The notes below the pieces were generated by a model. The model worked only from the letters and a program-made list of their open reading frames with translations, made no database searches and had not been told where the DNA came from. A program made the translations under genes and the position numbers. DNA of 64,000 bases from NCBI GenBank assembly GCA_949285735.1, contig CASEAQ010000021.1:5737-69736 (forward strand), read 5' to 3'. The DNA is from an uncultured Bacteroidales bacterium (GTDB lineage: Bacteria; Bacteroidota; Bacteroidia; Bacteroidales; Muribaculaceae). Of this stretch, positions 3,772-62,797 are shown in pieces. How positions within the stretch are numbered: position 1 is the first letter of the stretch; every line of letters begins with the position of its first letter.

Positions 3772-4149
3772 ATGGAAGAAACACTGAAAAAGAAACTCGC
3801 AAAAGACCCAAACGGGTTGGAAACCTACGAGTATATTGCAAACAACATCGACCAAATCGACCAAATCCTGCCCGAATTGGTGGACAATATCATCTCGGTT
3901 GACCGCTCGGGGCAATTCATCATAAGCACGGCTCGATACCTGCACGCCATCAACCAAGAGAAATATGCTTCCACCATCGACACATTGATAAAGGCTGCAA
4001 TTGTCAAAGACCGCGAACACCGCTACCTTGGCGACCTCATCGCCGGAATTTGGGGCGACGACTACCGCGACCGCGCCACAGAGCTGTGCCAAAGCGACGA
4101 CAACTTCCGCCGCATATACAAACGCCTGTACCCTACTTCAATCATTTAA
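3772..4149 (+). CDS. hypothetical protein (125 aa)
   Basis: Clean ORF with its own -7 box and codon usage like its neighbours. I recognise no motif. Confidence 0.6.
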   Translation: MEETLKKKLAKDPNGLETYEYIANNIDQIDQILPELVDNIISVDRSGQFIISTARYLHAINQEKYASTIDTLIKAAIVKDREHRYLGDLIAGIWGDDYRDRATELCQSDDNFRRIYKRLYPTSII

Positions 4150-4179
4150 CCACTGTTTTGCTCTATCCGCCAAAACGAA

Positions 4180-5073
4180 ATGAAAACTTTGTATCTCAAC
4201 TTAAAGCTGCTCATCCTTTCGCTCGCCGTTGCTTGCATAGGTTGCAGCGCAAACAATTCCAACAACTCAAACAACACCAACTCGACAAACAATATGGAAC
4301 AGACCGACAGCACTAAAATCGACAATGGCCGCACAAAGGTGACTTTCTCTACCACGATGGGCGACTTCACCGTAGAACTTTACAACGAAACGCCCAAGCA
4401 CCGCGACAATTTCCTGAAATTAGTGAAAGACAGTTTCTACAACGACGTGCTGTTCCACCGCGTTATACGCAACTTCATGGTGCAGACGGGCGACCCCGAC
4501 TCGCGCAACGCCGCCCCCAATGCCATGCTCGGTGCCGGAGGACCCGGATATAACATCGAAGCCGAAATCGTGTACCCGCAATTTTTCCACAAGAAAGGCG
4601 CACTTGCCGCCGCCAGACAAGCCGACCAAGTTAACCCGAAACGCGAATCTTCGGGGTCACAATTCTATGTGGTCACCGGCCGCCGATACACACAAGACCA
4701 ATTGATACAGATGCAGGCACAAATCGCCAACATGAAAATGCAGCAAATATTCGACTCGCTTGTAGCTCCTCGCCGCAAGGAAATCATGAAGCTGCGCATG
4801 GCTGGCGACTCGGCTGCCCTCGACAAGCTGAGCAACCAACTCGTTGAGCAAGCCAAAGCCGACTATGCCAAGTCGCCGTTCAACTTCACCGACGAACAAA
4901 TCAAGGCATACTCGGCTGTGGGCGGCACTCCGCATCTCGACGGGCAATACACCGTGTTTGGCGAAGTAATCGACGGAATGGCCACAATCGAAGCCATCGA
5001 GAATGTCGCCACGGGAAATGCCGACCGTCCAAAGGAAGACATCAAGATAATCTCGGCAACAATAGTAGAATAA
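4180..5073 (+). CDS. cyclophilin-type peptidyl-prolyl cis-trans isomerase, lipoprotein
   Basis: Signal peptide with a lipobox-like LAVACIGC and an Asn/Ser-rich linker. Cyclophilin motifs FHRVIRNFMVQTGDP, SGSQFYVV and YTVFGEV are present, with a helical insertion. Confidence 0.9.
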   Translation: MKTLYLNLKLLILSLAVACIGCSANNSNNSNNTNSTNNMEQTDSTKIDNGRTKVTFSTTMGDFTVELYNETPKHRDNFLKLVKDSFYNDVLFHRVIRNFMVQTGDPDSRNAAPNAMLGAGGPGYNIEAEIVYPQFFHKKGALAAARQADQVNPKRESSGSQFYVVTGRRYTQDQLIQMQAQIANMKMQQIFDSLVAPRRKEIMKLRMAGDSAALDKLSNQLVEQAKADYAKSPFNFTDEQIKAYSAVGGTPHLDGQYTVFGEVIDGMATIEAIENVATGNADRPKEDIKIISATIVE

Positions 5074-12004: not shown

Positions 12005-12781
12005 TTATACATATCCACGAATGATACCACGCTTTGAATTGCGCACGAAGAGGATTATCTCGTCGCGCTCCTTCGTTGCTGGCAATTCAGCCTCGATGCG
12101 CTCAATGGCATCGGTATTGTTCATTCCTGACAAATAAAGATACCTGAATATCTCCTGAATGTCGCGTATCTGTTCGTTGCTGAAACCGCGACGGCGCAAG
12201 CCTATCGAGTTTATACCGGCATATGAAATTGGGTTACGTCCGGCCTTCACATACGGCGGAATATCCTTGTTGACCAGTGCTCCACCCTGAAGCATCACGT
12301 GCTGGCCTATGTGTGAGAATTGGTGTATCAACGCTCCGCCTCCTATTACGGCATAATTGTCTATCACCACTTCTCCTGCCACTTGCACAGAGTTCGACAT
12401 TATCACATTGTCGCCTATCACACAGTCGTGAGCCACATGGCAATAAGCCATGATGAGGCAATTGCTGCCCACCACAGTTTTCCCCTTGGATGCAGTGCCG
12501 CGATTCACCGTGGCACATTCCCTGATTGTCGTGTTGTCTCCTATGATGGCAACGGTCTCTTCGCCGCGGAACTTCAAGTCTTGCGGAACTCCCGATATAA
12601 CCGCACCAGAGCATATCGTGCAATTTTTGCCGATGCGTGCACCTTCAAGTATGGTCACGTTGCTACCAATGCGTGTTCCTTCACCTATCTCCACGTTCTG
12701 GTCGATAGTAACAAACGGATCTATCACCACATTATTGGCAATTTTTGCTGCCGGATGAACGTAGGCTAATGGTTGTTTCAT
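12005..12781 (-). CDS. lpxA: acyl-ACP--UDP-N-acetylglucosamine O-acyltransferase
   Basis: Left-handed beta-helix hexapeptide repeats, an LpxA-type C-terminal helical domain, and a position downstream of lpxC-fabZ. Confidence 0.93.
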   Translation of the reverse strand: MKQPLAYVHPAAKIANNVVIDPFVTIDQNVEIGEGTRIGSNVTILEGARIGKNCTICSGAVISGVPQDLKFRGEETVAIIGDNTTIRECATVNRGTASKGKTVVGSNCLIMAYCHVAHDCVIGDNVIMSNSVQVAGEVVIDNYAVIGGGALIHQFSHIGQHVMLQGGALVNKDIPPYVKAGRNPISYAGINSIGLRRRGFSNEQIRDIQEIFRYLYLSGMNNTDAIERIEAELPATKERDEIILFVRNSKRGIIRGYV

Positions 12782-14249: not shown

Positions 14250-15278
14250 TTACTTCTTGTCCTCTGTCAACGACTTTTTGATTGCTGCCACATCTTTAAA
14301 CAGCTCGGGGAGACGCTTCATGTAAACAGTCTGGCGGGCAAAGTCCATCGCGTTCACCACCGGGCTGCCTATCACCGAACAATTGTCGCCGATGCTGTTT
14401 GGCACTCCCGACTGCGCCCCAAACTTATTGTTGTCGCCCACCTTGATATGGCCGGCAAATCCCACTTGGCCGCCAACCATGTTGTGCGCCCCGATTTTTG
14501 CCGACCCAGCCACACCCACTTGTGCAGCCATCACCGTGTGCTCTCCTATCTCCACATTGTGGGCAATCTGTATCAGGTTGTCGAGCTTCACACCCTTGTG
14601 TATCACGGTGCTGCCCATCGTGGCACGGTCGATTGTGGTGTTCGACCCTATCTCCACATTGTCGCATATCACCACATTGCCTATCTGTGCTATCTTCATA
14701 TACTCGCCATTCTCGGGGGCGAATCCAAATCCGTCGCCGCCTACCACTGCTCCGGCGTGTATCACGCAGTTGCAGCCTATCACACAACTATGGTAAACCT
14801 TTACTCCGGGATATATGATTGTGTTGTCGCCTATCGACACATTGTCGCCTATGTAACACTGCGGATAGATGCTCACGCCCTTGCCTATTTTCACGTTCTT
14901 GCCGATGTAGGCAAATGCGCCCACATAGACGTCGTCGGGCAACGATACGCCTTCCGACACGTAACACGGTTGTTCTACACCCCGCTTCCTTTCCTGCTGG
15001 CTTGATATGTAGTTGAGCAGCATTGCAAGTGTCGCATAAGGGTCTTCGACACGCACCATAGTGGCGGCAATGGCATGTTCCGGCACAAAATCATTCCTCA
15101 CCAATACTGCCGAGGCTTCGGTTGTGTATATAAAATGTGTATATAACGGATTGGCCAAGAAAGTCACACACCCCTTTTTTGCTTCCTCTATCTTGGCAAA
15201 ATTATTAATGACAACATCGGCATCACCTTCAACAGTTCCACCGACCAATTCTGCCAATTTACCTGCGGTTATCTCCAT
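14250..15278 (-). CDS. lpxD: UDP-3-O-(3-hydroxyacyl)glucosamine N-acyltransferase
   Basis: LpxD N-terminal domain followed by a long hexapeptide-repeat beta-helix. It is the first gene of the lpxD/lpxC-fabZ/lpxA operon. Confidence 0.93.
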
Positions 15279-26415: not shown

Positions 26416-26551
26416 ATATTTTGCCCCCGCATTTTCAAGCAATATACAAAATATTTTCCCATGCCAGCGCGGATCTTCCATTAAAGGCACAAACGGCCTC
26501 TTCCCCTTCACGGCTCTTTCTTTTAAAGTTCATGTAATATATCTACAACGA

Positions 26552-26571
26552 GGGCGGCAAAGCCGTCCAAC
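26552..26571 (+). repeat. REP-like hairpin unit GGGCGGCAAAGCCGTCCAAC (solitary copy)
   Basis: Same 20-nt unit as the four copies at 54.5 kb, with an AAA loop instead of GAA. It is followed by T7 on the plus strand. Confidence 0.7.
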
Positions 26572-26621
26572 TCTTTTTTTAAATGAATTTGCCCCAAGGC
26601 TGCCGCCACACTATGCACTGC

Positions 26622-52568: not shown

Positions 52569-54317
52569 ATGGAAGACAATCAATTACTGCAACAAGTAAT
52601 CGCCAAAGCCAAGACGTGGCTCACCGACGGTTACGACAAGGAAACCCAAGCCGAGGTGCAACGTATGCTCGATGCCGAGGATAAGACCGAGCTTATCGAC
52701 TCGTTCTATAAAGACCTTGAATTCGGCACTGGCGGATTGCGCGGCATAATGGGTGTAGGTTCCAACCGCATGAACATATACACCGTCGGCATGGCTACCC
52801 AAGGACTTTCCAACTACCTAAAGGACGCTTTCGCCGACCTCGACCAAATAAAGGTGGTTGTTGGCTGCGACGTGCGCAACAACAGCACCAAATTCTCAAA
52901 AATTGTTGCCGACATCTTCTCGGCAAACGGTATAAAGGTTTACCTCTTTGACGCTCCGCGCCCCACACCCGAAACTTCATTCGCCATTCGCCTGCTCGGT
53001 TGCCAGAGTGGTGTAATCATCACCGCCTCACACAACCCCAAGGAATATAACGGCTACAAAGCCTACTGGAACGACGGCGCACAGATGATTTCTCCGCACG
53101 ATGTGAAGACCATCGAGTATGTCAACAAGGTGACAAGCGTTGATCAAATCAAGTTCAAGGGCGACGACAGCCTCATCGAGGTAATCGGCGAAAACATCGA
53201 TGCCCAATTCATCGACCAAATCAAGACCCTCTCGCTTAGCCCCGACGTGATTGCCCGCAACCACGACTTGAAGATTGTTTACACTCCAATCCACGGCACT
53301 GGCAAGTTCCTCATTCCGCGCTCGCTCGCCAACTGGGGCTTCACCAATGTTATACACGTTCCCGAACAGGACGTGCAAAGCGGCGACTTCCCGACAGTTG
53401 ACTCGCCCAACCCCGAAAACGCCTCGGCTATGGCCATGGCTATCGAAAAAGCCAAGGAAGTGGATGCCGACATCGTTATGGCGTCAGACCCCGATGCCGA
53501 CCGCGTGGGTGTGGTAATCAAGAACACCAAGGGCGAATATGCCTTGCTCAACGGCAACCAGATAGTGATGATATTCCTCTACTACCTCATCGCCCGCAAC
53601 AAGGAACTCGGCCGCCTCACCGGCAACGAATATATCGTAAAGACAATCGTCACCACCGACACCATCAAGTCTATCGCCAGCAAGCAAGGCATGGAACTCT
53701 ATGACTGCTACACCGGCTTCAAGTGGATTGCAGCTATCATGAAAGAAAACGAGGGCAAGAAACGCTACCTCGGCGGTGGCGAAGAAAGCTACGGCTTCCT
53801 TGCCGAAGAGTTCGTGCGCGACAAAGACTCGGTTTCGGCAATCTCCCTGATGGCTGAAATCGCAGCATGGGCAAAAGACAAGGGCATGGACATGAACGAG
53901 ATGCTCATCGACATATACATGACCTATGGCTACTCGAAGGAGAAAGGCGTGTCGCTCGTGCGCCCGGGCAAGACTGGTGCCGACGAGATTGTGGCAATCA
54001 TGAAGGGCTTCCGCACCAATCCTCCAAAGGAATTGGCTGGCTCGCCCATCGTCACCATCAAGGACTTCAGCACGCTCGAAGAGAAAGATGTAAAGACTGG
54101 CAACGTAACCAAGCTCGAAATGCCTGTAACCTCAAACGTGCTTCAATTCTACACCGAAGACGGAACAAAGGTTTCGGTACGCCCGTCTGGAACAGAGCCT
54201 AAGATTAAGTTCTACATCGAAGTTCACGACACTCTCGCATCGGCAGCCGAATATGACGCTACCAACGAACGTGCCGACAAGAAAATCGAACAAGTTGCAA
54301 AAGACCTTGGTATCTAA
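52569..54317 (+). CDS. phospho-sugar mutase (phosphoglucomutase/phosphomannomutase family)
   Basis: Active-site serine loop TASHNPKEYNGYK, metal-binding DPDADR, and GGEESYG sugar-binding loop. Confidence 0.93.
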   Translation: MEDNQLLQQVIAKAKTWLTDGYDKETQAEVQRMLDAEDKTELIDSFYKDLEFGTGGLRGIMGVGSNRMNIYTVGMATQGLSNYLKDAFADLDQIKVVVGCDVRNNSTKFSKIVADIFSANGIKVYLFDAPRPTPETSFAIRLLGCQSGVIITASHNPKEYNGYKAYWNDGAQMISPHDVKTIEYVNKVTSVDQIKFKGDDSLIEVIGENIDAQFIDQIKTLSLSPDVIARNHDLKIVYTPIHGTGKFLIPRSLANWGFTNVIHVPEQDVQSGDFPTVDSPNPENASAMAMAIEKAKEVDADIVMASDPDADRVGVVIKNTKGEYALLNGNQIVMIFLYYLIARNKELGRLTGNEYIVKTIVTTDTIKSIASKQGMELYDCYTGFKWIAAIMKENEGKKRYLGGGEESYGFLAEEFVRDKDSVSAISLMAEIAAWAKDKGMDMNEMLIDIYMTYGYSKEKGVSLVRPGKTGADEIVAIMKGFRTNPPKELAGSPIVTIKDFSTLEEKDVKTGNVTKLEMPVTSNVLQFYTEDGTKVSVRPSGTEPKIKFYIEVHDTLASAAEYDATNERADKKIEQVAKDLGI

Positions 54318-54362
54318 CCAATCGGGCACTCCGAAAAGTTACAGACCGCAACTATAACACAC

Positions 54363-54408
54363 AAGGGTCGTGTCAAGCTCCACACAGAGCAATGGCACGA
54401 CCCTTTTT
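54363..54408 (+). terminator. rho-independent terminator of the phosphosugar mutase gene
   Basis: 10-bp stem AAGGGTCGTG (54363-54372) / CACGACCCTT (54396-54405) followed by TTTTATT. Confidence 0.7.
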
Positions 54409-54458
54409 ATTGTTAACAAAGTAGTGTATCATAATTGCAAACACATTTATTTATCGTA

Positions 54459-54480
54459 GAGCCGTGGCGTGCCGCGGCTC
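54459..54480. other. GC-rich hairpin GAGCCGTGG-CGTG-CCGCGGCTC
   Basis: 9-bp stem (one G-T pair) with a 4-nt loop, in the non-coding spacer upstream of the nested palindromic element. Confidence 0.5.
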
Positions 54481-54539
54481 ATCCGCACAAATTGTATATT
54501 TAGCGAACACTAAAACAACCTATTAGAAGCAACAAAGCA

Positions 54540-54559
54540 GGGCGGCGAAGCCGTCCAAC
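54540..54559 (+). repeat. REP-like hairpin unit A: GGGCGGCGAAGCCGTCCAAC
   Basis: Internal 7-bp hairpin GGGCGGC-GAA-GCCGTCC (one G-T pair) followed by an AAC tail. Confidence 0.7.
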
Positions 54560-54630
54560 CTCGCGCTAACCGGGGGTGACGCAGCCCTTTAGGGCAAGGA
54601 ACCCTCGGGCAACCATCACCACTCACAGCA

Positions 54631-54650
54631 GGGCCTCGAAGAGGTCCAAC
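54631..54650 (+). repeat. REP-like hairpin unit B: GGGCCTCGAAGAGGTCCAAC
   Basis: Same frame as unit A, but the inner 4 bp change from CGGC/GCCG to CCTC/GAGG, a fully compensatory change. Confidence 0.7.
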
Positions 54651-54715
54651 GTGCCACTTTGGTAGTGCTTAAACAGCATTACAAACCGCCCTGTACGTTT
54701 TTGCAATGGAGCTTC

Positions 54716-54735
54716 GTTGGACCTCTTCGAGGCCC
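54716..54735 (-). repeat. REP-like hairpin unit B, inverted copy
   Basis: GTTGGACCTCTTCGAGGCCC is the exact reverse complement of 54631-54650. Confidence 0.7.
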
Positions 54736-54809
54736 TATACTGTGGAGTAGCAGTATCCGCCGGTTCCTTGCCAACTTCGTGTGGCTGCGTCACCGGCGGT
54801 TATGGCATA

Positions 54810-54829
54810 GTTGGACGGCTTCGCCGCCC
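54810..54829 (-). repeat. REP-like hairpin unit A, inverted copy
   Basis: GTTGGACGGCTTCGCCGCCC is the exact reverse complement of 54540-54559. Confidence 0.7.
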
Positions 54830-54901
54830 CCCGTGATACAGCATTCCGTGACATACCTTCATCACAGGAATACACAAATACGCCAGCATTCACACAATGA
54901 C

Positions 54902-54941
54902 GAAGGGCGCACCCCCCCGATGTTGGGAGGTTGCGCCCTTC
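54902..54941 (-). terminator. terminator hairpin of the RND efflux operon
   Basis: 10-bp stem GAAGGGCGCA (54902-54911) / TGCGCCCTTC (54932-54941), 25 nt downstream of the TolC stop. There is no strong U-run. Confidence 0.5.
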
Positions 54942-54965
54942 GCGTGTTATCATGTGATTGCTTTT

Positions 54966-56255
54966 TTATCTGCCAGTCGCCTGCAAATATTCCACAATCT
55001 TTATCCTGTATTGCGAATAGGCATCGACATACTTGTCACGGCTCTGCCTGAAGAGGCTTTGAGCATCGAGCAAGTCGCTCATCGTGGTCGTTCCGGCACG
55101 GTAATACTGCTCGTTGAGCCGCAAGTTCTCGGTCGATTGCTCTATCGAGTTGTGGGCAATCAACATCTGCTTGTAGGCATCCTGCAAGTCGTTCCACGAC
55201 TTCTGCATACCTATCACCAGCAACTCGGAGTTGTCGGCAAGCAGGTTTTCGGCATTTGCCACCTCCAACTTCTGTTTCTTAATGTCGTGCGAACCGCTCC
55301 ACCAGCCCGACAGCGGTATCGACACCGACACAAACGCCATTGCCACAGGCTTGTCGCGGTCGGTGAGGTTGTCGTGCATGAAGCTGCCGCCCACAGCCAC
55401 CGTGGGCATATTCTTTCCCACTGTCATCTTTTGTTGCAACTTGCTTGCCTTCACGTTGCTCTCAAGCAAGCGGTAGCCGGTAGTCTGCGACAATGCGCCC
55501 ACATGGTCGCAATATATGTCTTGCGGAAACATCGGCACCTCGTCGGTAGGCACATCACACACCACCTCGATGCTGTCGGTTTCGGCACCGATATACTGTG
55601 CAAGCATCATGCGGCTCAGAGCCAACCCGTTTTCCAAGTTGACGCGGCTGCTCTTCACGTCGTTCTGCTTCAATTGCACCTGCAGCAAGTCGTTGCGGGT
55701 GGTCAACCCGGCATTCACCGACACCTGCACGTCGTGGCACAGCGTGTCGAGCTGCTGCTCAATGGCACACAGCGTGTTGAGCTTCTCCTGCAGCGTCACC
55801 ACCTGCCAGTAGTATTGTTCCACCGTCAGGCTCACCTCGTTCTCGGCTTGCTCGCGCTGCACCTCGCTCACCTCCACTCCGATGTTGGCAAGGCGGTTGC
55901 CATTCACAATCTGTCCGCCGGCAAACAGCGGCTGGGTCAAAGTGATGCCCCCGGCAATACCTTTCTTGAGCAACGACATGCTCATGCCAGGCGACATATC
56001 CATCTTCATCAGCCCGTGGTTTCCCACAAACCCCATTCCCGACGCGCTAAGCGAGGGGAAGTAGGTCGTGAACGTGCTTTTCTGTGCCTGCTGTGCCGAC
56101 TCGAGCGAATTGTTGGCGTTGCGCATCTTCACGTTGTTATCGATAGCCATGCTGCGGCACTCATCGAGCGTGTATGTCACCTTTTGTGCCTGGCTGGGCA
56201 TCACGCCGATGCCAAGTGCCACAAAAGCCATTATCCATTTATATCTGTTTTTCAT
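54966..56255 (-). CDS. TolC family outer-membrane efflux protein
   Basis: Signal peptide MKNRYKWIMAFVALGIGVMPSQAQ and two OEP repeats. It is the last gene of the adaptor-RND-OMF operon. An alternative start lies at 56285. Confidence 0.9.
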   Translation of the reverse strand: MKNRYKWIMAFVALGIGVMPSQAQKVTYTLDECRSMAIDNNVKMRNANNSLESAQQAQKSTFTTYFPSLSASGMGFVGNHGLMKMDMSPGMSMSLLKKGIAGGITLTQPLFAGGQIVNGNRLANIGVEVSEVQREQAENEVSLTVEQYYWQVVTLQEKLNTLCAIEQQLDTLCHDVQVSVNAGLTTRNDLLQVQLKQNDVKSSRVNLENGLALSRMMLAQYIGAETDSIEVVCDVPTDEVPMFPQDIYCDHVGALSQTTGYRLLESNVKASKLQQKMTVGKNMPTVAVGGSFMHDNLTDRDKPVAMAFVSVSIPLSGWWSGSHDIKKQKLEVANAENLLADNSELLVIGMQKSWNDLQDAYKQMLIAHNSIEQSTENLRLNEQYYRAGTTTMSDLLDAQSLFRQSRDKYVDAYSQYRIKIVEYLQATGR

Positions 56256-56296
56256 AATTGTTACTTTTAATAATGCGTGTGTCATTTATACATATA

Positions 56297-59200
56297 TTAT
56301 TCACGTTCAAGCAGTTCGCGCTTGCGGCGTATCTCCGTGCTACGGTTGAGCAATTTCCAGTATGCGATAGGTATCACCGTGAGGATAAAGAACATCGTAA
56401 TCAACGTGCCGTAGAAGATTACTATGCCCATAGGCATCCACAATCCGCTGCCGCCCAATATCATCGGAATCACACCCATCGAGGCTGCTGCCGAGGTGAG
56501 GAATATGGGTCGCATACGACGCTGTGCCGAGTAGTAGATTGCATCCCTCACGCTCATGCACTCTTCTCTACGCAGTTCCTCGGCATAGTCTATCATGATA
56601 ATACCGTTACGCACAAGAATACCCATCAGGCTCACAAATCCCAATATGCAGGTCACGCCCAATTCGACACCATGCAGCATGATACCTATTGCCGTTCCAA
56701 ACACACACAGCGTGAGAGCCACAAGCAGCATCACGGCAGTGCCGATTCGCTTGAAGTGCCATATCAAGATGAAGAATATGATAGCTATGGCTATATACAA
56801 TGCCATCATTATCGACGGCATCTGGTCTTCGCTCTCTTCCAATTCGCCACCGTATGTCACCGTCACCCCGTCGGCAAACGGTGCGGCAGCCAACAATTCC
56901 TTCACCTTGTCGGTGGCTTGCATGGCGTTGACGCCACGCTCCATCTCAGCCATCACGGTTATGGTGCGCACACCGTTGCGGCGTACAATCTGTCCGTTCT
57001 CCCACGACGGCTCCACCGTTGCCACTTGGCGCAATGGCACATTGCCCAGTCCGCCTGCCACGGGGATAAGTTCGTCTTTCAGGTTGCCGAAGTCGGCGCT
57101 GTCGGAGCGGTTGCTCTTCAACACCACATTTATGTCGTAGTCGCCTTCCCACATCGTTCCCACGGGCACTCCGCCGCCATAGCGCATGGCAAGCGTCGTT
57201 TCGAGCTGGGCGTTGGTGATGCCCAGGCGGGTCGAAGCCTCCTCGTCGAGCGTGATGCGAGTTGCTGCCATCGGCTCGTTGAAGTTTGTCCTCACGAGGT
57301 TCAGCTCGGGCATAGTACGCAACAATGCAGTAACGCGCTCAGCTTCCTTTTCAAGCACCTCAAGGTCGTCGCCACTCAATCTCACCTCTATCGGCGACAC
57401 GGCTTCGCTATACTCAAGTTGCTTGAACTTAACCACAGCCTCGGGGAAAGCGTCGCGGTACTTCGGTGCATACTCGTCGAGCAATTCCTCGGTGGCTTCA
57501 TTGCTGACAGTGTTGACAATGAACTGTGCGAAATTCGAGCCGCCCATCTGCGGGGCATACGAGTTCTGGAACCGTGGCGAGGCACACCCTTTGAACGATG
57601 CCACCGACACCACACGCCCGTCCTGGCGCAACAGGTGTTCGAGGCTGTCGGCAACTATTGCCGTCTTCTCAACGGCAGTTCCGGTGGGCATGTATATCTC
57701 CACTGCAAACTGGTTGCGCTCAGCCTTTGGCAGCAACTTCTGCGGCAGTCCTCCAAGCATTACTGCGCCCACCACTACCGACACACCGCCCATCACCAAC
57801 ACGGCAGTCGGGTGCTTGAAGCACTTGTCGAGCAAGTGGTTGTAACCATTTTGCAACAGATCGAGGAACGAGAATTTGCGCTTGCCGTCCTTTGGCAATT
57901 CGCTTTGTATGGGCTTGCGGATAAAGTAAAATTGCATGAACGGTACAATCAACTCAGCCACAAGCAGCGAAATCATCAATATTATCGTTACTGCCCACGG
58001 GAAACTTGCTACGAAGTCGGCTGTCATACCCGTCAACGTGAACAGGAACGGGAAGAATGTGATACTGATGGCAAGCGTTGCCGAGAATATCGACTTGAAG
58101 AAGTGGGTGGCACTCTTTATCGACGCATGCCAGCGCGACATTCCAGAGGAAATAAGTTCAAGGTAATTGTCGATGATTACTATCGAGTTGTCAACAATCA
58201 TTCCAAGCGTCACAATCAAGGCTGCAAGCGTCACTGTGTTAAGCTCGATGCCAAAGGCATAGAACAGCCCGAGCGAAATGAAGATGGTGATAGGAATGGT
58301 CGAAGCAGCCACAAGAGCCACACGCAACGGCATGAGCAACATCACCACTACAATCACGGCGCAGATGGCTATCACCAACTCTTTAAGGAATGTGGCAACA
58401 CTGTCGTCAACCACCTTGCTTTGGTCGGTAATCTTGAATATTGTCACATCATCGGGCAACGTCTGCTCAAAGGCTTCAAGCTCGGCTTTCACCATTTCGC
58501 CCATCTCGACGATGTTTTTCCCTTTCTTCATCTCAACGCTGAGTAACAGGCACTTCTCGCCATTGTTGGTGATATAGCTTTCAGGCGTGGGATATTCCTT
58601 CACCACACGAGCCACATTTTTAAGCCGCACGTTCTGCCCGTCGGGAGTTGAGAATATTATCATCTCCTGCACATCATGCAACGTGTTCATCGAGCGGCTC
58701 ACATAGATGGGCGACACATAGTCGGTGTCTTTCACCCTGCCAGCCGTCGTGGCAAATCCCTTGCTGAACAGCGTCATGGCAAGCGACTGGTCGCTGATGC
58801 CATAATGCGACAGGCGGTCGTTGTCCAGGTAAACCGAGATTTGCTCCTGCTGCATACCATAGACATTCATGCGACCCACGCTCTCGATGCGGCGCAAGCG
58901 GTCTTTCAGGTCGTCCATGTAGTCGTTGAGTTCGCGGTAGGTCTTGTCCTCGCTCTCCATGGTGATGAGCAATGCCGACGTGTCGCCGAAGTCGTCCATC
59001 ACCTGCACAGCCAACACGCCCTTGGGCAACTGGCTCTTGAAGTCGTTGATGCCATGCTTGAACTTGCTCCAAAACTCGTCATTGTTGTTGAGTTCGTCGT
59101 TCAACTGCACTTGTATCACCACCATACCGTCCTTGCTGGTCGAGTGGGTCTTGGATTTTTTCACCTCTTTGTAGCTGAATATGTAGTCTTCGAGCGGCTT

Positions 59201-59410
59201 TGTCACCTGCTCCTCCACCTCGGCGGCAGTGTAGCCCGGGCACACGGCAGCCACTATTCCCTGACGAATAGTGAAATCGGGGAACTCATTCTTCTTCATA
59301 TCCGACAGTCCGAAGATGCCGAACACCATCAGGCAGCACGTCAGCAAGATAATAATCTGCCTGTAGTGCATCGCCCATTCCACCAGGTTGCGTTTTTTCT
59401 CCTTTTTCAT
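56297..59410 (-). CDS. efflux RND transporter permease subunit (AcrB/HAE1-like)
   Basis: 1037 aa with 12 TM helices and two large periplasmic loops; typical N-terminus (VEWAMHYRQIIILLTCCLMVFGIFGL). Confidence 0.95.
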   Translation of the reverse strand: MKKEKKRNLVEWAMHYRQIIILLTCCLMVFGIFGLSDMKKNEFPDFTIRQGIVAAVCPGYTAAEVEEQVTKPLEDYIFSYKEVKKSKTHSTSKDGMVVIQVQLNDELNNNDEFWSKFKHGINDFKSQLPKGVLAVQVMDDFGDTSALLITMESEDKTYRELNDYMDDLKDRLRRIESVGRMNVYGMQQEQISVYLDNDRLSHYGISDQSLAMTLFSKGFATTAGRVKDTDYVSPIYVSRSMNTLHDVQEMIIFSTPDGQNVRLKNVARVVKEYPTPESYITNNGEKCLLLSVEMKKGKNIVEMGEMVKAELEAFEQTLPDDVTIFKITDQSKVVDDSVATFLKELVIAICAVIVVVMLLMPLRVALVAASTIPITIFISLGLFYAFGIELNTVTLAALIVTLGMIVDNSIVIIDNYLELISSGMSRWHASIKSATHFFKSIFSATLAISITFFPFLFTLTGMTADFVASFPWAVTIILMISLLVAELIVPFMQFYFIRKPIQSELPKDGKRKFSFLDLLQNGYNHLLDKCFKHPTAVLVMGGVSVVVGAVMLGGLPQKLLPKAERNQFAVEIYMPTGTAVEKTAIVADSLEHLLRQDGRVVSVASFKGCASPRFQNSYAPQMGGSNFAQFIVNTVSNEATEELLDEYAPKYRDAFPEAVVKFKQLEYSEAVSPIEVRLSGDDLEVLEKEAERVTALLRTMPELNLVRTNFNEPMAATRITLDEEASTRLGITNAQLETTLAMRYGGGVPVGTMWEGDYDINVVLKSNRSDSADFGNLKDELIPVAGGLGNVPLRQVATVEPSWENGQIVRRNGVRTITVMAEMERGVNAMQATDKVKELLAAAPFADGVTVTYGGELEESEDQMPSIMMALYIAIAIIFFILIWHFKRIGTAVMLLVALTLCVFGTAIGIMLHGVELGVTCILGFVSLMGILVRNGIIMIDYAEELRREECMSVRDAIYYSAQRRMRPIFLTSAAASMGVIPMILGGSGLWMPMGIVIFYGTLITMFFILTVIPIAYWKLLNRSTEIRRKRELLERE

Positions 59411-59429
59411 AACCTGTTATACCCTTTAT

Positions 59430-60467
59430 TTATTCTTCAACCATTATACTCATTTGTTCGCTCACTTTCTGCTGCCCTTCGACAAGCACTTCATCACCCA
59501 CGGCGAGGCCTCCTGTCACCACGATACCATCTTTCGACAACATACCGGTCTCAACAACTCTCTTGGCAGCCCTGCCACCGTCGTTAACCCACACAAACGA
59601 CTGGTTGTCGCTGTCGAGCTGAATCACGTTGCACGGCAGCTCTATCACCTCCCGGCTCTCGTCGGTACCAATGAACAGGTCGCATATCATGCCCGGCAGC
59701 AACTCGCCCGAAGGATTCTCAACGAGTGCTTTCACCTCATACGAGCGCGACAGACGGTTGGCTGACACATTCTTTTCAACCACTTTTCCCTCAAACGTTT
59801 TCCCGTCGAGAGCCGACACCACGATGTTGACACTCTGCCCCGTCGCAACGTGCGAAATCTCATTCTCTGGCACCGAGATGCTCACCTTCACGCGGTCAAC
59901 AGCCACGAGCTTCACCACTGGCGAGCCGGGCATCACGTTCTGCCCCACTTCGACATTCTTCTCGGAGATGACACCCGAGAACGGGGCATATAGCTTGCTA
60001 TCCTCAAGATTCTTTTTTGCAATCTGCTCTGCCGAGCGTGCTTGCCTAAGGCTGCTTTGCGCTTCCACCCATTGTATCTCGGGCAAGCTATTGTTGTCGT
60101 GCAACTGCTTCATGCGCCAATAGGCATCTTCGGCTTGCTCCAGCACCGATGCAGCTGCATCGTAGGCATTCAGCAAAGTGGTCTCGTCAACGGTGGCAAT
60201 CAATTGCCCGCTGCCCACTCGCTGCCCGGTGGAAACATTCAATTGCTGTATAGTTCCCGAAACGGGGAAGCTCAACGTCGAGCCTTTCACCTCTTCCACT
60301 GTTCCCGAATAATGTTGTCCTATATTAGCTTCGACCGATTCAATCTTCATCGTCTTTACCTTGACGGGAGCCGCATTCACGGCTTCTGCCGATTCTTGTT
60401 GCTTACAGCCAACAGCCGCAAACATCAACGATAGCACGACTGCTACATTACAATACATCTTTTTCAT
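59430..60467 (-). CDS. efflux RND transporter periplasmic adaptor subunit (lipoprotein)
   Basis: Lipoprotein signal MKKMYCNVAVVLSLMFAAVGC, followed by a biotinyl-lipoyl/hairpin/beta-barrel MFP fold. The track start at 60602 lies upstream of the likely promoter; an alternative start lies at 60479. Confidence 0.9.
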   Translation of the reverse strand: MKKMYCNVAVVLSLMFAAVGCKQQESAEAVNAAPVKVKTMKIESVEANIGQHYSGTVEEVKGSTLSFPVSGTIQQLNVSTGQRVGSGQLIATVDETTLLNAYDAAASVLEQAEDAYWRMKQLHDNNSLPEIQWVEAQSSLRQARSAEQIAKKNLEDSKLYAPFSGVISEKNVEVGQNVMPGSPVVKLVAVDRVKVSISVPENEISHVATGQSVNIVVSALDGKTFEGKVVEKNVSANRLSRSYEVKALVENPSGELLPGMICDLFIGTDESREVIELPCNVIQLDSDNQSFVWVNDGGRAAKRVVETGMLSKDGIVVTGGLAVGDEVLVEGQQKVSEQMSIMVEE

Positions 60468-60675
60468 ACTCACTCTCATTTTAATGTGTGAAATTGTTCT
60501 TTTTTCTATTTGTTGTTCATTTTCTTTTTTCAGCTGCAAAGTTGCAGATAAATAAACCACAATCAGTGTCCTAAAAGTCTGATAAAAATAGATATTATTC
60601 AATATAGTACACCCAATCAGAATATAATCACACTATATCTGCATTTTTGAACACTTTAGTTAAAGTAATAAAGGA

Positions 60676-60683
60676 TAATTTTG
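60676..60683 (+). promoter_or_regulatory. -7 promoter box TAATTTTG (AraC regulator gene)
   Basis: Exact TAnnTTTG match 31 nt upstream of the ATG at 60714. It overlaps the TTG start at 60681 used in the ORF track. Confidence 0.55.
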
Positions 60684-60713
60684 CACCAGAAACAAAACAA
60701 ATATAACACTCGT

Positions 60714-61619
60714 ATGGAAAAAGAAGACATTCTTCAAGTCGGTTTTGACCAAATCAAAAATTTACACGAAATCGACTATATGGATGGCAACATTGCTTTC
60801 CATAAAGACATAAGAGAACTCCCAACCGAAAACGGAACTATAAGAATGAACATGTATGCAATGGTACCCTGCTCGAAAGGAAGGTTACAAGTGGAATTGG
60901 ACACCGAGACATTCACCATCGGGTCGAACGACTTGCTGATATGCTCTCCCAACACGCTCATCACCAATTGCATGCTGACTCCCGACTTCGACGGTGCAAT
61001 AATGTGTATTTCGCAACGGGTGATTTCCGAGAGCTTTTCTCAAAGCAACATGTGGGAAAGGGCGTTCCGATTCTCAAAAAATCCCATCTTGCATTTCGGC
61101 AATGAGGACAACTTAAAGTTAATTAAATTGTATGGAGAACTACTTATCGAAAAAGCCAAATCGAAACAAACACAATATAAAAAAGAAATAATAAACTCAC
61201 TGGTCAAGGCTGTAATATACGAAGTGTTGGCAAACGCCGAAACATCAGCACCAACCAACATCAACATAACGTCGAAGCAACGCGACGTGCTATTCAAGCG
61301 TTTCATCAACCTCATCACCGATATGGCAGTAAAACCTCGGTCGGTGGCTTGGTATGCCGACCGCCTCTGTGTCACGCCCAAGCACCTGTCGGCAGTATGC
61401 AAGCAAGTGAGCGGGCGCACGGCATTAGATTGGATTTCGGAATACGCCCTTATCGACATTCGATATTACCTGAAAAATTCCGAAAAATCAATAAAGGAGA
61501 TTGCCGACCTGCTCGACTTCCCCAACATTTCATTTTTCGGCAAATACTGCCGCCAGCACTTCGGAATGTCGCCCAAGGAATACCGCCGGCAGTTGCGCGA
61601 GGAGCCGGTCAGCAATTAG
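60714..61619 (+). CDS. AraC family transcriptional regulator
   Basis: C-terminal double HTH (VAWYADRLCVTPKHLSAVCK ... IKEIADLLDFPNISFFGKYCRQHFGMSPKEYR). It is divergent from the efflux operon. Confidence 0.88.
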   Translation: MEKEDILQVGFDQIKNLHEIDYMDGNIAFHKDIRELPTENGTIRMNMYAMVPCSKGRLQVELDTETFTIGSNDLLICSPNTLITNCMLTPDFDGAIMCISQRVISESFSQSNMWERAFRFSKNPILHFGNEDNLKLIKLYGELLIEKAKSKQTQYKKEIINSLVKAVIYEVLANAETSAPTNINITSKQRDVLFKRFINLITDMAVKPRSVAWYADRLCVTPKHLSAVCKQVSGRTALDWISEYALIDIRYYLKNSEKSIKEIADLLDFPNISFFGKYCRQHFGMSPKEYRRQLREEPVSN

Positions 61620-62797
61620 CCTGCTGACTTCATACTTTTGTGAGCCAGCACACAACTTGTTGCAGTAAGCAATACGAAAATTATGGACGAAGTGATGAAA
61701 ATATTCCCGAGCCCGACCAACGGCGATGCCAGTCCGCCTGCCACATAGCCCATTGCTCCGAAGAATGCCGATGCTATGCCGGCATTGGTGCGCTCCGACT
61801 CCATCGCAAGGGCAGTTGACGTGGTGCACACTGCCCCTACGAACAAATAAAGCGTGAACAACGCAGCCTCGTAGGCGAAAAAACCAAGGTGCAACATCAA
61901 TGCCAAGGCAAGCAGCAACGAAGCCCCCACCATGCCCATGCTTGCCACCCTGATGACCGAGCGCATATCCTTAAACTGCGAAGCAACACCCGACGAAATT
62001 GCCAAAGCAACCGAATTTGCCCCAAAGACGAGGCTTATCTGCTCGGCCGACAAGCCGTAGCTGTCCATTATGAAGGGCCCTGAGGCAAGATTGACAAATA
62101 TCAACGCCATCACAACGCCATATTGCACAATAGCACCCACATACAGGCGATTGGCAACCACTTTGCGTATTCCAGTGAACAGTGCCGAAGGATTGAGGCG
62201 GACACGGTTGCAAGACGGCAACGATTCTCTGAGGCACACCGTACCAAACATCATCACCACGCCTATCGCCGCCAATCCCCAGAAAACTGCCCTCCAGCCA
62301 TACGCGCCTATGATGAAGCCACCGAACATGGGAGCAAGGACGGTCGAAACACCGTTTATCATGCCTATTATGCCAAACATCGACGACAGCGCGCTACCCG
62401 AGTAACAGTCGGCAACAATCGACCTCGAGATGACAACCGCACCGGCAGCCGCCAGCCCTTGGAAAAAGCGCATCGCTATGAACATCGCTATCGACGGCGA
62501 TGCAAGGCAACCTAATGTGGCAAGCAAGAATAGCACTATCGACATCATCAACGGCGTGCGTCTGCCATAGCAGTCGCTCACCGTGCCAAAAAAGAGCTGC
62601 CCCAAGGCAAGTCCTACGGTACAAGCCGTCAACGACAGTTGCACCACCGACGGTGTGCTGTTATAAAACTCTGTTATCTGTGGAAATGCCGAAATATACA
62701 TATCCATAACAAATGGACCAAAGGCACTCAACAGCCCTAAAAAACCTTCTAAGAACGTTCGTGAATTAACCCTTTTTACTCCAGATACAGTTTGCAT
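61616..62797 (-). CDS. MFS multidrug efflux transporter, Bcr/CflA family
   Basis: 12 TM helices, FVMDMYISAFPQI in TM1 and the GTVSDCYGRRTPL motif A. Confidence 0.88.
   Translation of the reverse strand: MQTVSGVKRVNSRTFLEGFLGLLSAFGPFVMDMYISAFPQITEFYNSTPSVVQLSLTACTVGLALGQLFFGTVSDCYGRRTPLMMSIVLFLLATLGCLASPSIAMFIAMRFFQGLAAAGAVVISRSIVADCYSGSALSSMFGIIGMINGVSTVLAPMFGGFIIGAYGWRAVFWGLAAIGVVMMFGTVCLRESLPSCNRVRLNPSALFTGIRKVVANRLYVGAIVQYGVVMALIFVNLASGPFIMDSYGLSAEQISLVFGANSVALAISSGVASQFKDMRSVIRVASMGMVGASLLLALALMLHLGFFAYEAALFTLYLFVGAVCTTSTALAMESERTNAGIASAFFGAMGYVAGGLASPLVGLGNIFITSSIIFVLLTATSCVLAHKSMKSAG

Follow-up and report, generated by a model that had tools for sequence, protein, structure and literature searches.

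A hairpin-rich palindromic element between convergent genes of a Muribaculaceae bacterium is probably a decayed copy of a MITE/BIME-like Bacteroidales repeat family

The bacterial interspersed mosaic elements (BIMEs) of Escherichia coli are built of short, GC-rich, imperfect palindromes, the repetitive extragenic palindromic sequences (REPs), which alternate in orientation and are joined by conserved linkers. They are modular and multi-copy, vary in their number of units, and lie between genes, often between convergent genes after the terminators. The MITEs of bacteria (miniature inverted-repeat transposable elements), such as Correia of Neisseria, ERIC/IRU, RUP and BOX of Streptococcus pneumoniae, are non-coding elements of 200-400 bp that carry terminal repeats and 8-9-bp duplications in intact copies, have foldback potential, break assemblies and, in the case of BOX, have a modular interior. 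REPINs are REP doublets that form hairpins (Bertels and Rainey 2011, PMC3116915), and bulk catalogues describe the genomes of Bacteroidota as MITE-rich (PMC11602168). Here we analyze an element at positions 54540-54829 of a 64,000-nt stretch of DNA (the window) from an uncultured Muribaculaceae bacterium (GenBank assembly GCA_949285735.1, contig CASEAQ010000021.1). An earlier reading made from the letters alone (the sequence-only reading) had proposed that these 290 nt of four perfect helices were either a long-hairpin RNA or a BIME-like REP cluster. We consider it probable that the element is a decayed copy, truncated at its right end, of a palindromic, hairpin-rich, MITE/BIME-like repeat family of Bacteroidales and that it has no dedicated role at this site. 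The family is MITE-like in movement and BIME-like in build. It is apparently unnamed, and no description found in the searchable literature names either the hairpin module or the family.

The second half of the earlier proposal, the BIME-like cluster, proved essentially right, as the element consists of short, GC-rich hairpins that alternate in a mosaic with conserved linkers, and it belongs to a multi-copy family. It shares with E. coli BIMEs all of the traits listed above, but its sequence is unrelated to them. The units here are 17-20 nt long with a C-GAA-G triloop and a 3' AAC, whereas REPs are ~35 nt long with a 5' GTAG, and the module holds a second conserved hairpin, here called P2. BIMEs have neither the terminal inverted repeats nor the target-site duplications of the element's intact relatives, and the copy density of about one per 45-64 kb is below that of E. 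coli REPs. We know of no RAYT gene for this family. The likeness to bacterial MITEs extends to coding status, size, terminal repeats and duplications of intact copies, foldback potential, the breaking of assemblies and, as in BOX, a modular interior. Unlike those MITEs, the window copy is without a right terminal repeat and a duplication, one interior occurs in at least three outer shells, and that interior covaries across the family and holds a fixed wobble, both unusual for MITEs. As in REPINs, two inverted units that contain palindromes surround a spacer and the whole can form a long hairpin; REPIN arms, however, are kept symmetrical, whereas most members of this family have different, individually compensated stems. 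The family is closest to E. coli BIMEs in build and to bacterial MITEs in mobility, and it is not REPIN-like because its arms are not kept symmetric. Two further comparisons lie within the phylum. The minisatellite-containing MITE of Porphyromonas gingivalis (PMC4596501) is also a non-autonomous element of Bacteroidales, and in the accessible part of its description we recognised no architecture in common with ours. The ncRNA arrays that accompany UG27 reverse transcriptases in Bacteroidota prophages (bioRxiv 10.64898/2026.09.22.753630) likewise consist of repeated hairpin units conserved in structure above sequence, but those are direct units of ~150 nt beside a reverse-transcriptase operon in prophages, whereas here the layout is inverted, the unit is different and there is neither a reverse transcriptase nor a prophage. 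Identity with such an array was rejected on these differences of architecture and context.

Our analysis recovered the element with the sequence and at the coordinates originally reported, as a long imperfect inverted repeat far above chance. A repeat finder returned the arm pairs 54540-54586/54783-54829 (47 nt, 85% complementary) and 54593-54608/54757-54772 (16 nt, 88% complementary). The inner helix was also present, though slightly longer than the 20 bp first claimed, at 54630-54651/54715-54736 (22 nt, 100% complementary). When a 311-nt region was folded as a single strand, its energy was -176.2 kcal/mol for the + strand and -195.3 kcal/mol for the - strand (z = -12.7 and -14.3, respectively), and 0 of 100 shuffles were as low on either. 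Three features had been overlooked, namely the hairpin formed by each 20-nt unit, the local folding of each arm and a leftward extension to the tip of a terminal repeat at 54476, with which the non-coding element measures ~354 bp.

The local folding begins with the 20-nt unit GGGCnnCGAAGnnGTCCAAC (GGGC-nn-C-GAA-G-nn-GTCC-AAC), present in four copies in the element (u1 to u4) and once more at 26552. Its pattern matched five times in the window against 0.33 matches expected, and none of 100 shuffles reached five. Every unit is a 7-bp hairpin of its own with a GAA loop, and its variable dinucleotides are complementary inside the unit (GG/CC in u1 and u4, CT/AG in u2 and u3). The second local hairpin, P2, follows u1 (on the + strand) and u4 (on the - strand) downstream and has the general form CCnnnGG-TGA...GAA-CCnnnGG (CCGGGGG-TGA...GAA-CCCTCGG in the left arm, CCGCCGG-TGA...GAA-CCGGCGG in the right arm). 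Each arm thus has the order H1, linker, P2, spacer, H2, with the two arms inverted about a 65-nt apex. The consensus of the module is a hairpin H with a C-GAA-G loop, AAC, a linker YATGCTTAA, P2 closed by TGA/GAA and, after a spacer, another H. The layout seen here, four intergenic H units oriented + + - - with conserved linkers, was found in 11 elements.

The inversion of the arms incidentally allows them to fold back over 290 nt, and the question was whether conservation follows the long fold or the local hairpins. In an alignment of 23 modules (alignment A2), the two local helices were paired in 94.4% of cells versus 73.3% in shuffles, and 9 of the 14 helix pairs had changed on both sides. 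The covariation score was 0.51 versus 0.13 in shuffles, and 0 of 500 shuffles reached it, a count that overstates independence since the sequences of the set are related. Because slid controls scored 0.04-0.22 and many distinct versions of the helices exist, we take the covariation signal to be real. RNAalifold, run unguided, returned the same two helices. We then compared pairing within and between arms at the H and P2 positions of 11 palindromic elements, using helix strings transcribed by hand (with the bulge of locus L001 simplified), and found 97% paired within an arm versus 75% between arms. The corresponding values were 100% and 86% for the window and 96% and 46% for the member at L011. 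The arms of the window copy differ at two P2 pairs, and both differences are compensated within the arm and mismatched across the arms. Moreover, the blocks identical between the arms (hairpin H, TAACC, GGTGA and GGAACC) are those conserved throughout the family, while the differing segment CTTTAGG versus ACACGAAGTTG is the hypervariable loop tip of the family. The other differing segment is an aberrant linker, CTCGCGC, whose family form TATGCCT is kept in another strain of the same species. The conserved feature is therefore the local hairpins and not the long hairpin. A dedicated long-hairpin RNA is left unsupported, as arm identity reflects family-conserved parts and pairing is kept within arms rather than between them. 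The accompanying claim of selection on structure stands for the local hairpins, given their covariation and intra-arm pairing, and falls for the 290-nt fold.

The aberrant linker is part of a local difference between two haplotypes. The window and loci L131, L002 and L003 carry CTCGCGCTAACCGGG-GG, whereas the strain at L001 carries TATGCCTTAACCGAGCGG (window 54560-54576 versus L001 11992-12009) and with it a consensus-like linker, TATGCCTTAA. The haplotypes differ at 7 positions clustered in 18 nt, and the surrounding DNA is nearly identical. This looks like a patch of ectopic gene conversion from another copy.

The module also has a preferred strand. Pair 5-17 was G.U in 16, U.G in 5, C.G in 1 and unpaired in 1 of the aligned sequences. 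As a fixed G.U wobble becomes an A.C mismatch on the opposite strand, the sense ('GAA') strand folds better. Under RNA parameters it was the more stable of the two in all 29 modules, by a mean difference of -6.6 kcal/mol, and under DNA parameters in 28 of them. Among the top-strand hairpins of 14 elements, the loops were C-GAA-G (18), C-AAA-G (5), C-GGA-G (1) and C-GCA-G (1), and the mirror C-TTC-G hairpins in those elements mostly had fewer than 5 bp. RNA structures typically show covariation, a conserved wobble and strand asymmetry. Together with the very stable folds predicted for both strands, these features favor a functional structured RNA, made by read-through or from a promoter of its own, which could act as a bidirectional terminator, an insulator, a 3' structure that stabilizes mRNA, a long double-stranded RNA substrate or the precursor of a small RNA. 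The same asymmetry can be read for single-stranded DNA (ssDNA), in which the fixed wobble is G.T and only one strand forms both hairpins well. The element could then be REP/REPIN-like, its H hairpins and AAC (GTT on the other strand) being cut by an HUH/Y1 (RAYT-like) or other structure-specific enzyme, with the outer repeats as a secondary shell. The loop suits this possibility, since the classic, hyperstable mini-hairpin of DNA, d(GCGAAGC), is of the C-GNA-G type and C-GAA-G is by far the commonest loop. The conserved short flank beside the hairpin and the inverted doublets also recall REP/REPIN architecture, and the core is found in several different terminal-repeat shells. We regard both the RNA and the ssDNA explanations as unlikely, the latter marginally more so, on grounds that come from the mobility of the relatives and from the setting of the element, described below.

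To define the family, we scanned a species-representative genome collection with a degenerate form of the unit, and the counts that follow are among the matches listed. Most of these were single chance occurrences in GC-rich genomes. The unit together with its downstream motif was found in at least 16 Bacteroidales loci of Prevotella/Segatella, Marseilla, Alloprevotella, Muribaculaceae and one Bacteroides metagenome-assembled genome (MAG), where the unit was followed, unless the contig ended first, by YATGCTTAACC, a 7-bp helix, TGR, a variable tip, GAAC and the complementary 7-mer. A covariance model (R1) built from the 23 modules of A2 gave at least 35 strong matches on 100 of the unit loci listed, all of them in Bacteroidales loci. 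Across ~85 non-Bacteroidales loci that had the 20-mer pattern, there was, among the matches listed, one marginal match to R1 (L086, 24 bits). In the window itself, R1 found two full modules (66.5 and 61.5 bits) and three H-only matches (u2, u3 and the solitary unit at 26552). BLAST against plasmids gave a single match, on a Segatella copri 93-kb replicon, and BLAST against phages gave none. Of the viral sequences in IMG/VR, six loci fitted the pattern and 0 of 6 were confirmed by the covariance model. A scan of JGI metagenomes for the subfamily of the window (GGTGAYGCAGCC...GCAAGGAACC, too narrow a pattern) yielded two chance matches only, in unrelated DNA and in one case apparently in coding sequence. 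Two members were arranged in tandem: in the Bacteroides MAG (L044 1100-2200), the whole palindromic core occurs as three copies with a 405-bp period, and in an Alloprevotella MAG (L041 1-520), the left arm is duplicated with a 148-bp period.

Relatives with intact ends show how the family moves. Five elements of 214-390 bp in Prevotella MAGs contain the core between ends GGTTCATCCGCA...TGCGGATGAACC. Three of them are flanked by perfect 8-bp direct repeats (GCGAACGG, CTCAAAGG and GCAAATCG), one by a 7/8 match ((A/G)TTTTATT), and the flanks of the fifth (L019) are unclear. The closest relative of the window element, in the Muribaculaceae (L049), has CACGGCTCTTTCATTTAAAG at its ends and is flanked by the 9-bp duplication GGCACACCC. 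Terminal inverted repeats were present at both ends in relatives L013, L037, L019, L045, L085 and L049. These repeats and the 8-9-bp duplications imply that the Prevotella and Muribaculaceae elements are MITEs. The sequence-only reading had linked that class to many near-identical copies flanked by target-site duplications, and this holds in part at the level of the family but not for the window copy, which has neither a pair of terminal repeats nor a duplication. On one Prevotella contig (L085), the elements at 4081-4380 and 384-597 have common terminal repeats, GGTTCATCCGCAGTT.AGGTGTAT, around unrelated palindromic interiors, so the terminal repeats alone can define a mobile unit. This weighs against the ssDNA explanation introduced above, as do the terminal repeats and duplications themselves, which HUH single-strand transposition does not produce, and the failure of most members to keep their arms complementary in the manner of REPINs. 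No Y1/HUH gene was found within 10 kb on either side of the element, whole genomes not having been scanned.

From the repeats and duplications, we infer that a DDE-type transposase, recognizing the outer terminal repeats, would act in trans to mobilize intact copies. A parent insertion sequence would have ends matching GGYTCATCCGCA or CACGGCTCTTTC, and the empty site of L037 would read aactttgcacggCTCAAAGGgatgcc. Ends of the form GG[CT]TCATCCGCAAA with an 8-bp duplication resemble those of the IS6 family. Two candidate parents were rejected, a Segatella locus with a DDE_5/DDE_Tnp_1 transposase (L129 18025-19134), whose terminal-repeat similarity was at chance level, and an apparent paired terminal repeat in L022, which encloses ordinary open reading frames (ORFs). 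Several of the Prevotella insertion sites (left flanks of L013, L019, L067 and L085) lie just after short hairpin repeats, GGCC...TTTTGCAA...GCGAAAGGCC, which points to a further family of repeats or to a preference for certain insertion sites. In Segatella copri (NZ_CP137558.1, L128), the 93-kb replicon, labelled a plasmid, bears module copies at 12283-12560 and 15002-15147 that flank an undecaprenyl-phosphate glucose phosphotransferase gene, and inverted repeats of yet a third kind, AAGTTTCGCAAGTA, enclose the full copy.

The window copy itself can be followed from end to end. Its left outer part (54476-54539, + strand) opens with the terminal-inverted-repeat tip GGCTCATCCGCA, identical at 11 of 12 positions to the Prevotella MITE tip GGTTCATCCGCA, and continues with a spacer that ends in CAACAAAGCA and is followed by GGGC, as in Prevotella. 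Upon alignment of seven Prevotella/Marseilla left ends, GG.TCA.C.GCA and the junction of ...AGCA with GGGC were kept, the window sequence being ~29 nt longer. Hairpin unit u1 (H1, sense on the + strand; 54540-54559) reads GGGCGGC-GAA-GCCGTCC plus AAC and forms part of the covariance-model match at 54540-54608 (61.5 bits). The remainder of that match is the linker CTCGCGCTAA and the covarying local hairpin P2/P3 (54560-54608, +), in which 54570-54576 (CCGGGGG) pairs with 54602-54608 (CCCTCGG) around TGA, the variable tip and GAA. Unit u2 (H2, sense on +; 54631-54650) reads GGGCCTC-GAA-GAGGTCC plus AAC and is an H-only match of 23.2 bits. The 65-nt apex (54651-54715, assigned to neither strand) starts with GTGCCAC and ends with GCTTC, ends that it has in common with the Muribaculaceae element L049, and is variable in its middle. 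Beyond it lies u3 (H2', sense on -; 54716-54735), identical to u2 and scoring 25.8 bits. The right-arm module (54757-54829, sense on -) comprises u4 at 54810-54829, the linker TATGCCATAA at 54800-54809, and P2 with 54793-54799 (CCGCCGG) paired to 54757-54763 (CCGGCGG); it is the top covariance-model match in the window (66.5 bits, E = 9e-16). The right edge of the element, at 54829, is abrupt. A miniature relic of the same family lies at 26509-26595 (+), with an L049-type terminal repeat CACGGCTCTTTCTTTTAAAG, a 23-nt spacer, one H unit GGGCGGCAAAGCCGTCCAAC (22.3 bits) with a T-run after it and, on the right, a degenerate repeat TTTTTAAATGAATTTGCCCC. It stands between two genes of the - strand and is antisense to both.

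Several observations weigh against a decayed MITE/BIME-like copy. No right terminal repeat was found for the window copy in 54830-54965, where alignment scores equaled the shuffle mean, and no target-site duplication was found either, as the CGTGCCGC just before 54476 has no second copy on the right. The mobility of this copy is thus presumed from that of its relatives. In the 64 kb of the window we saw one element and one relic, and in the 93-kb Segatella replicon two elements; no parent insertion sequence or transposase with matching ends was found in the loci examined. Furthermore, one core occurs in at least three unrelated outer repeat shells and sometimes without an obvious shell, so that it may be a separate entity, one whose conservation a purely selfish-MITE account leaves unexplained. 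The strongly conserved linker, the fixed wobble and the covarying stems also go beyond the constraint seen in the interior of most MITEs. In the strongest form of this view of the core, to which we give a minor share of our belief, the H-linker-P2 module would be an undescribed structured motif of ~60-70 nt that is read single-stranded, whether as RNA or as ssDNA, by a protein dedicated to it, for instance an HUH-type enzyme or RNA-binding factor, with the module as the true functional or mobile core and the shells merely as carriers. The features of the module in question are its two covarying helices, the fixed G.U wobble, the C-GNA-G loops and the conserved single-stranded AAC, TAACC and GAACC, and its range covers at least two families of Bacteroidales (Prevotellaceae and Muribaculaceae) and a MAG labelled Bacteroides.

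The setting of the element bears most directly on an RNA role. As first reported, the element lies between the convergent 3' ends of a phosphosugar mutase gene (52569-54317, +) and a TolC/OEP gene (54966-56231, -), with no convincing ORF within it. In the gene table there is no gene downstream of it on either side, and the Pfam-annotated table of the matching metagenome contig (L001) has no recombinase within 10 kb on either side. It has no Rfam match even at E <= 10, apart from generic miRNA-hairpin noise, which agrees with the earlier failure to recognize a known RNA class. Two relatives searched against Rfam at E <= 1 and 12 related loci at the gathering threshold likewise gave nothing relevant within the elements. 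One Rfam family was matched at gathering level outside an element, the FopS sRNA (RF04319) at L085 1-55 (-), ~330 nt from one element. A terminator-like hairpin with a T-run follows the mutase gene at 54363-54412 (+; inverted repeat I10, AAGGGTCGTGTCA/TGGCACGACCCTT, then TTTTTATT), at the end of the mutase transcript and outside the element. A second one follows the TolC gene at 54901-54942 (-; inverted repeat I4, 18-nt arms, 89%), also outside the element and bounding it on the right. The element sits downstream of these terminator-like hairpins of both convergent genes.

On a decayed mobile copy, these facts would fit together as follows. The copy would have landed, or arrived by recombination, in a dead zone between two convergent terminators and would then have lost its right end, and it is probably immobile. 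At most it might serve as an extra hairpin barrier to read-through transcripts, which from either side would always reach the well-folding sense modules first. That same palindromic layout, and a position between convergent genes like that of E. coli REPs in 3' untranslated regions, can be cited for a functional RNA. Against such an RNA stand the terminator-like hairpins that precede the element on both sides, the lack of an exact match to the Bacteroidetes -7 promoter motif TAnnTTTG in 54318-54965, and the presence of AAC, not U-tracts, after the hairpins. The relic at 26552 is antisense to both neighbors, no Rfam family matches, and long-range pairing is not the conserved feature. In addition, the element is absent at the same locus in close relatives.

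This absence was seen after the mutase in relatives whose mutase is 94%, 91% and 85% identical, and relatives L116 and L117 have just a terminator at this site. Two of the matches with 79% identity to the mutase carry names, one Muribaculaceae and one Bacteroidales, in keeping with a Muribaculaceae host. In the relative with the 94% identical mutase (L116 5047-5404, compared with window 54318-61619), the mutase is directly followed by an MFS transporter and an AraC gene, and this MFS transporter is orthologous to the one at window 61616-62797 (70% identity). The window thereby holds an extra block of ~7 kb, made up of the repeat element, a TolC-RND-MFP efflux operon and an AraC regulator, which places the repeat at an indel junction. 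Short-read contigs of the locus end inside the element (L002 and L003 at window ~54603, L132 at window ~54707), and contigs also end inside relatives at L040, L042, L045, L065, L067 and L084.

Two further explanations concern the inverted repeats themselves. Bacteroidales are rich in invertons, and perfect inverted repeats of 22 bp and 20 bp could in principle let a recombinase acting in trans flip the 63-nt or 250-nt segment between these 20-22-bp repeats. We consider such a switch very improbable, given that it would have no downstream gene to regulate, no promoter motif and no recombinase within 10 kb on either side, that the apex has one and the same orientation in three independent full assemblies of the locus, and that the repeats are family-wide hairpin units rather than locus-specific recombination sites. 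An integron attC-like site comes to mind from the GTCCAAC (RYYYAAC) and GTTGGAC (GTTRRRY) at the unit ends, which match the attC R''/R' consensus, and from the folding of the sequence as a hairpin. The anatomy effectively refutes this, and we give it next to no credence. The R-like boxes lie at the loop-proximal end of the 20-bp helices and not at the stem base; a 79-nt span has the apex without a continuous attC-like stem, and the alternative span of 264 nt is outside the 57-141 nt range of attC sites. There is no cassette array and no integrase, and the right-arm units of Prevotella relatives read GTTCGCC, which does not fit GTTRRRY.

Taken together, the 290 nt of four perfect helices would be a relic of a repeat family and not a new RNA gene, to be annotated as a repeat or mobile-element remnant. 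The family breaks short-read assemblies of gut Bacteroidales, with several contigs ending inside copies. Its repeats mark junctions of indels and recombination, and the window copy edges an efflux-operon block that a close relative lacks. The module at its core, with its covariation, its fixed wobble and its reuse in several shells, is more constrained than the usual MITE interior. If the module has a protein partner, the pair would be a Bacteroidales counterpart of REP/RAYT and would offer a handle on how intergenic DNA is shaped in abundant gut bacteria.

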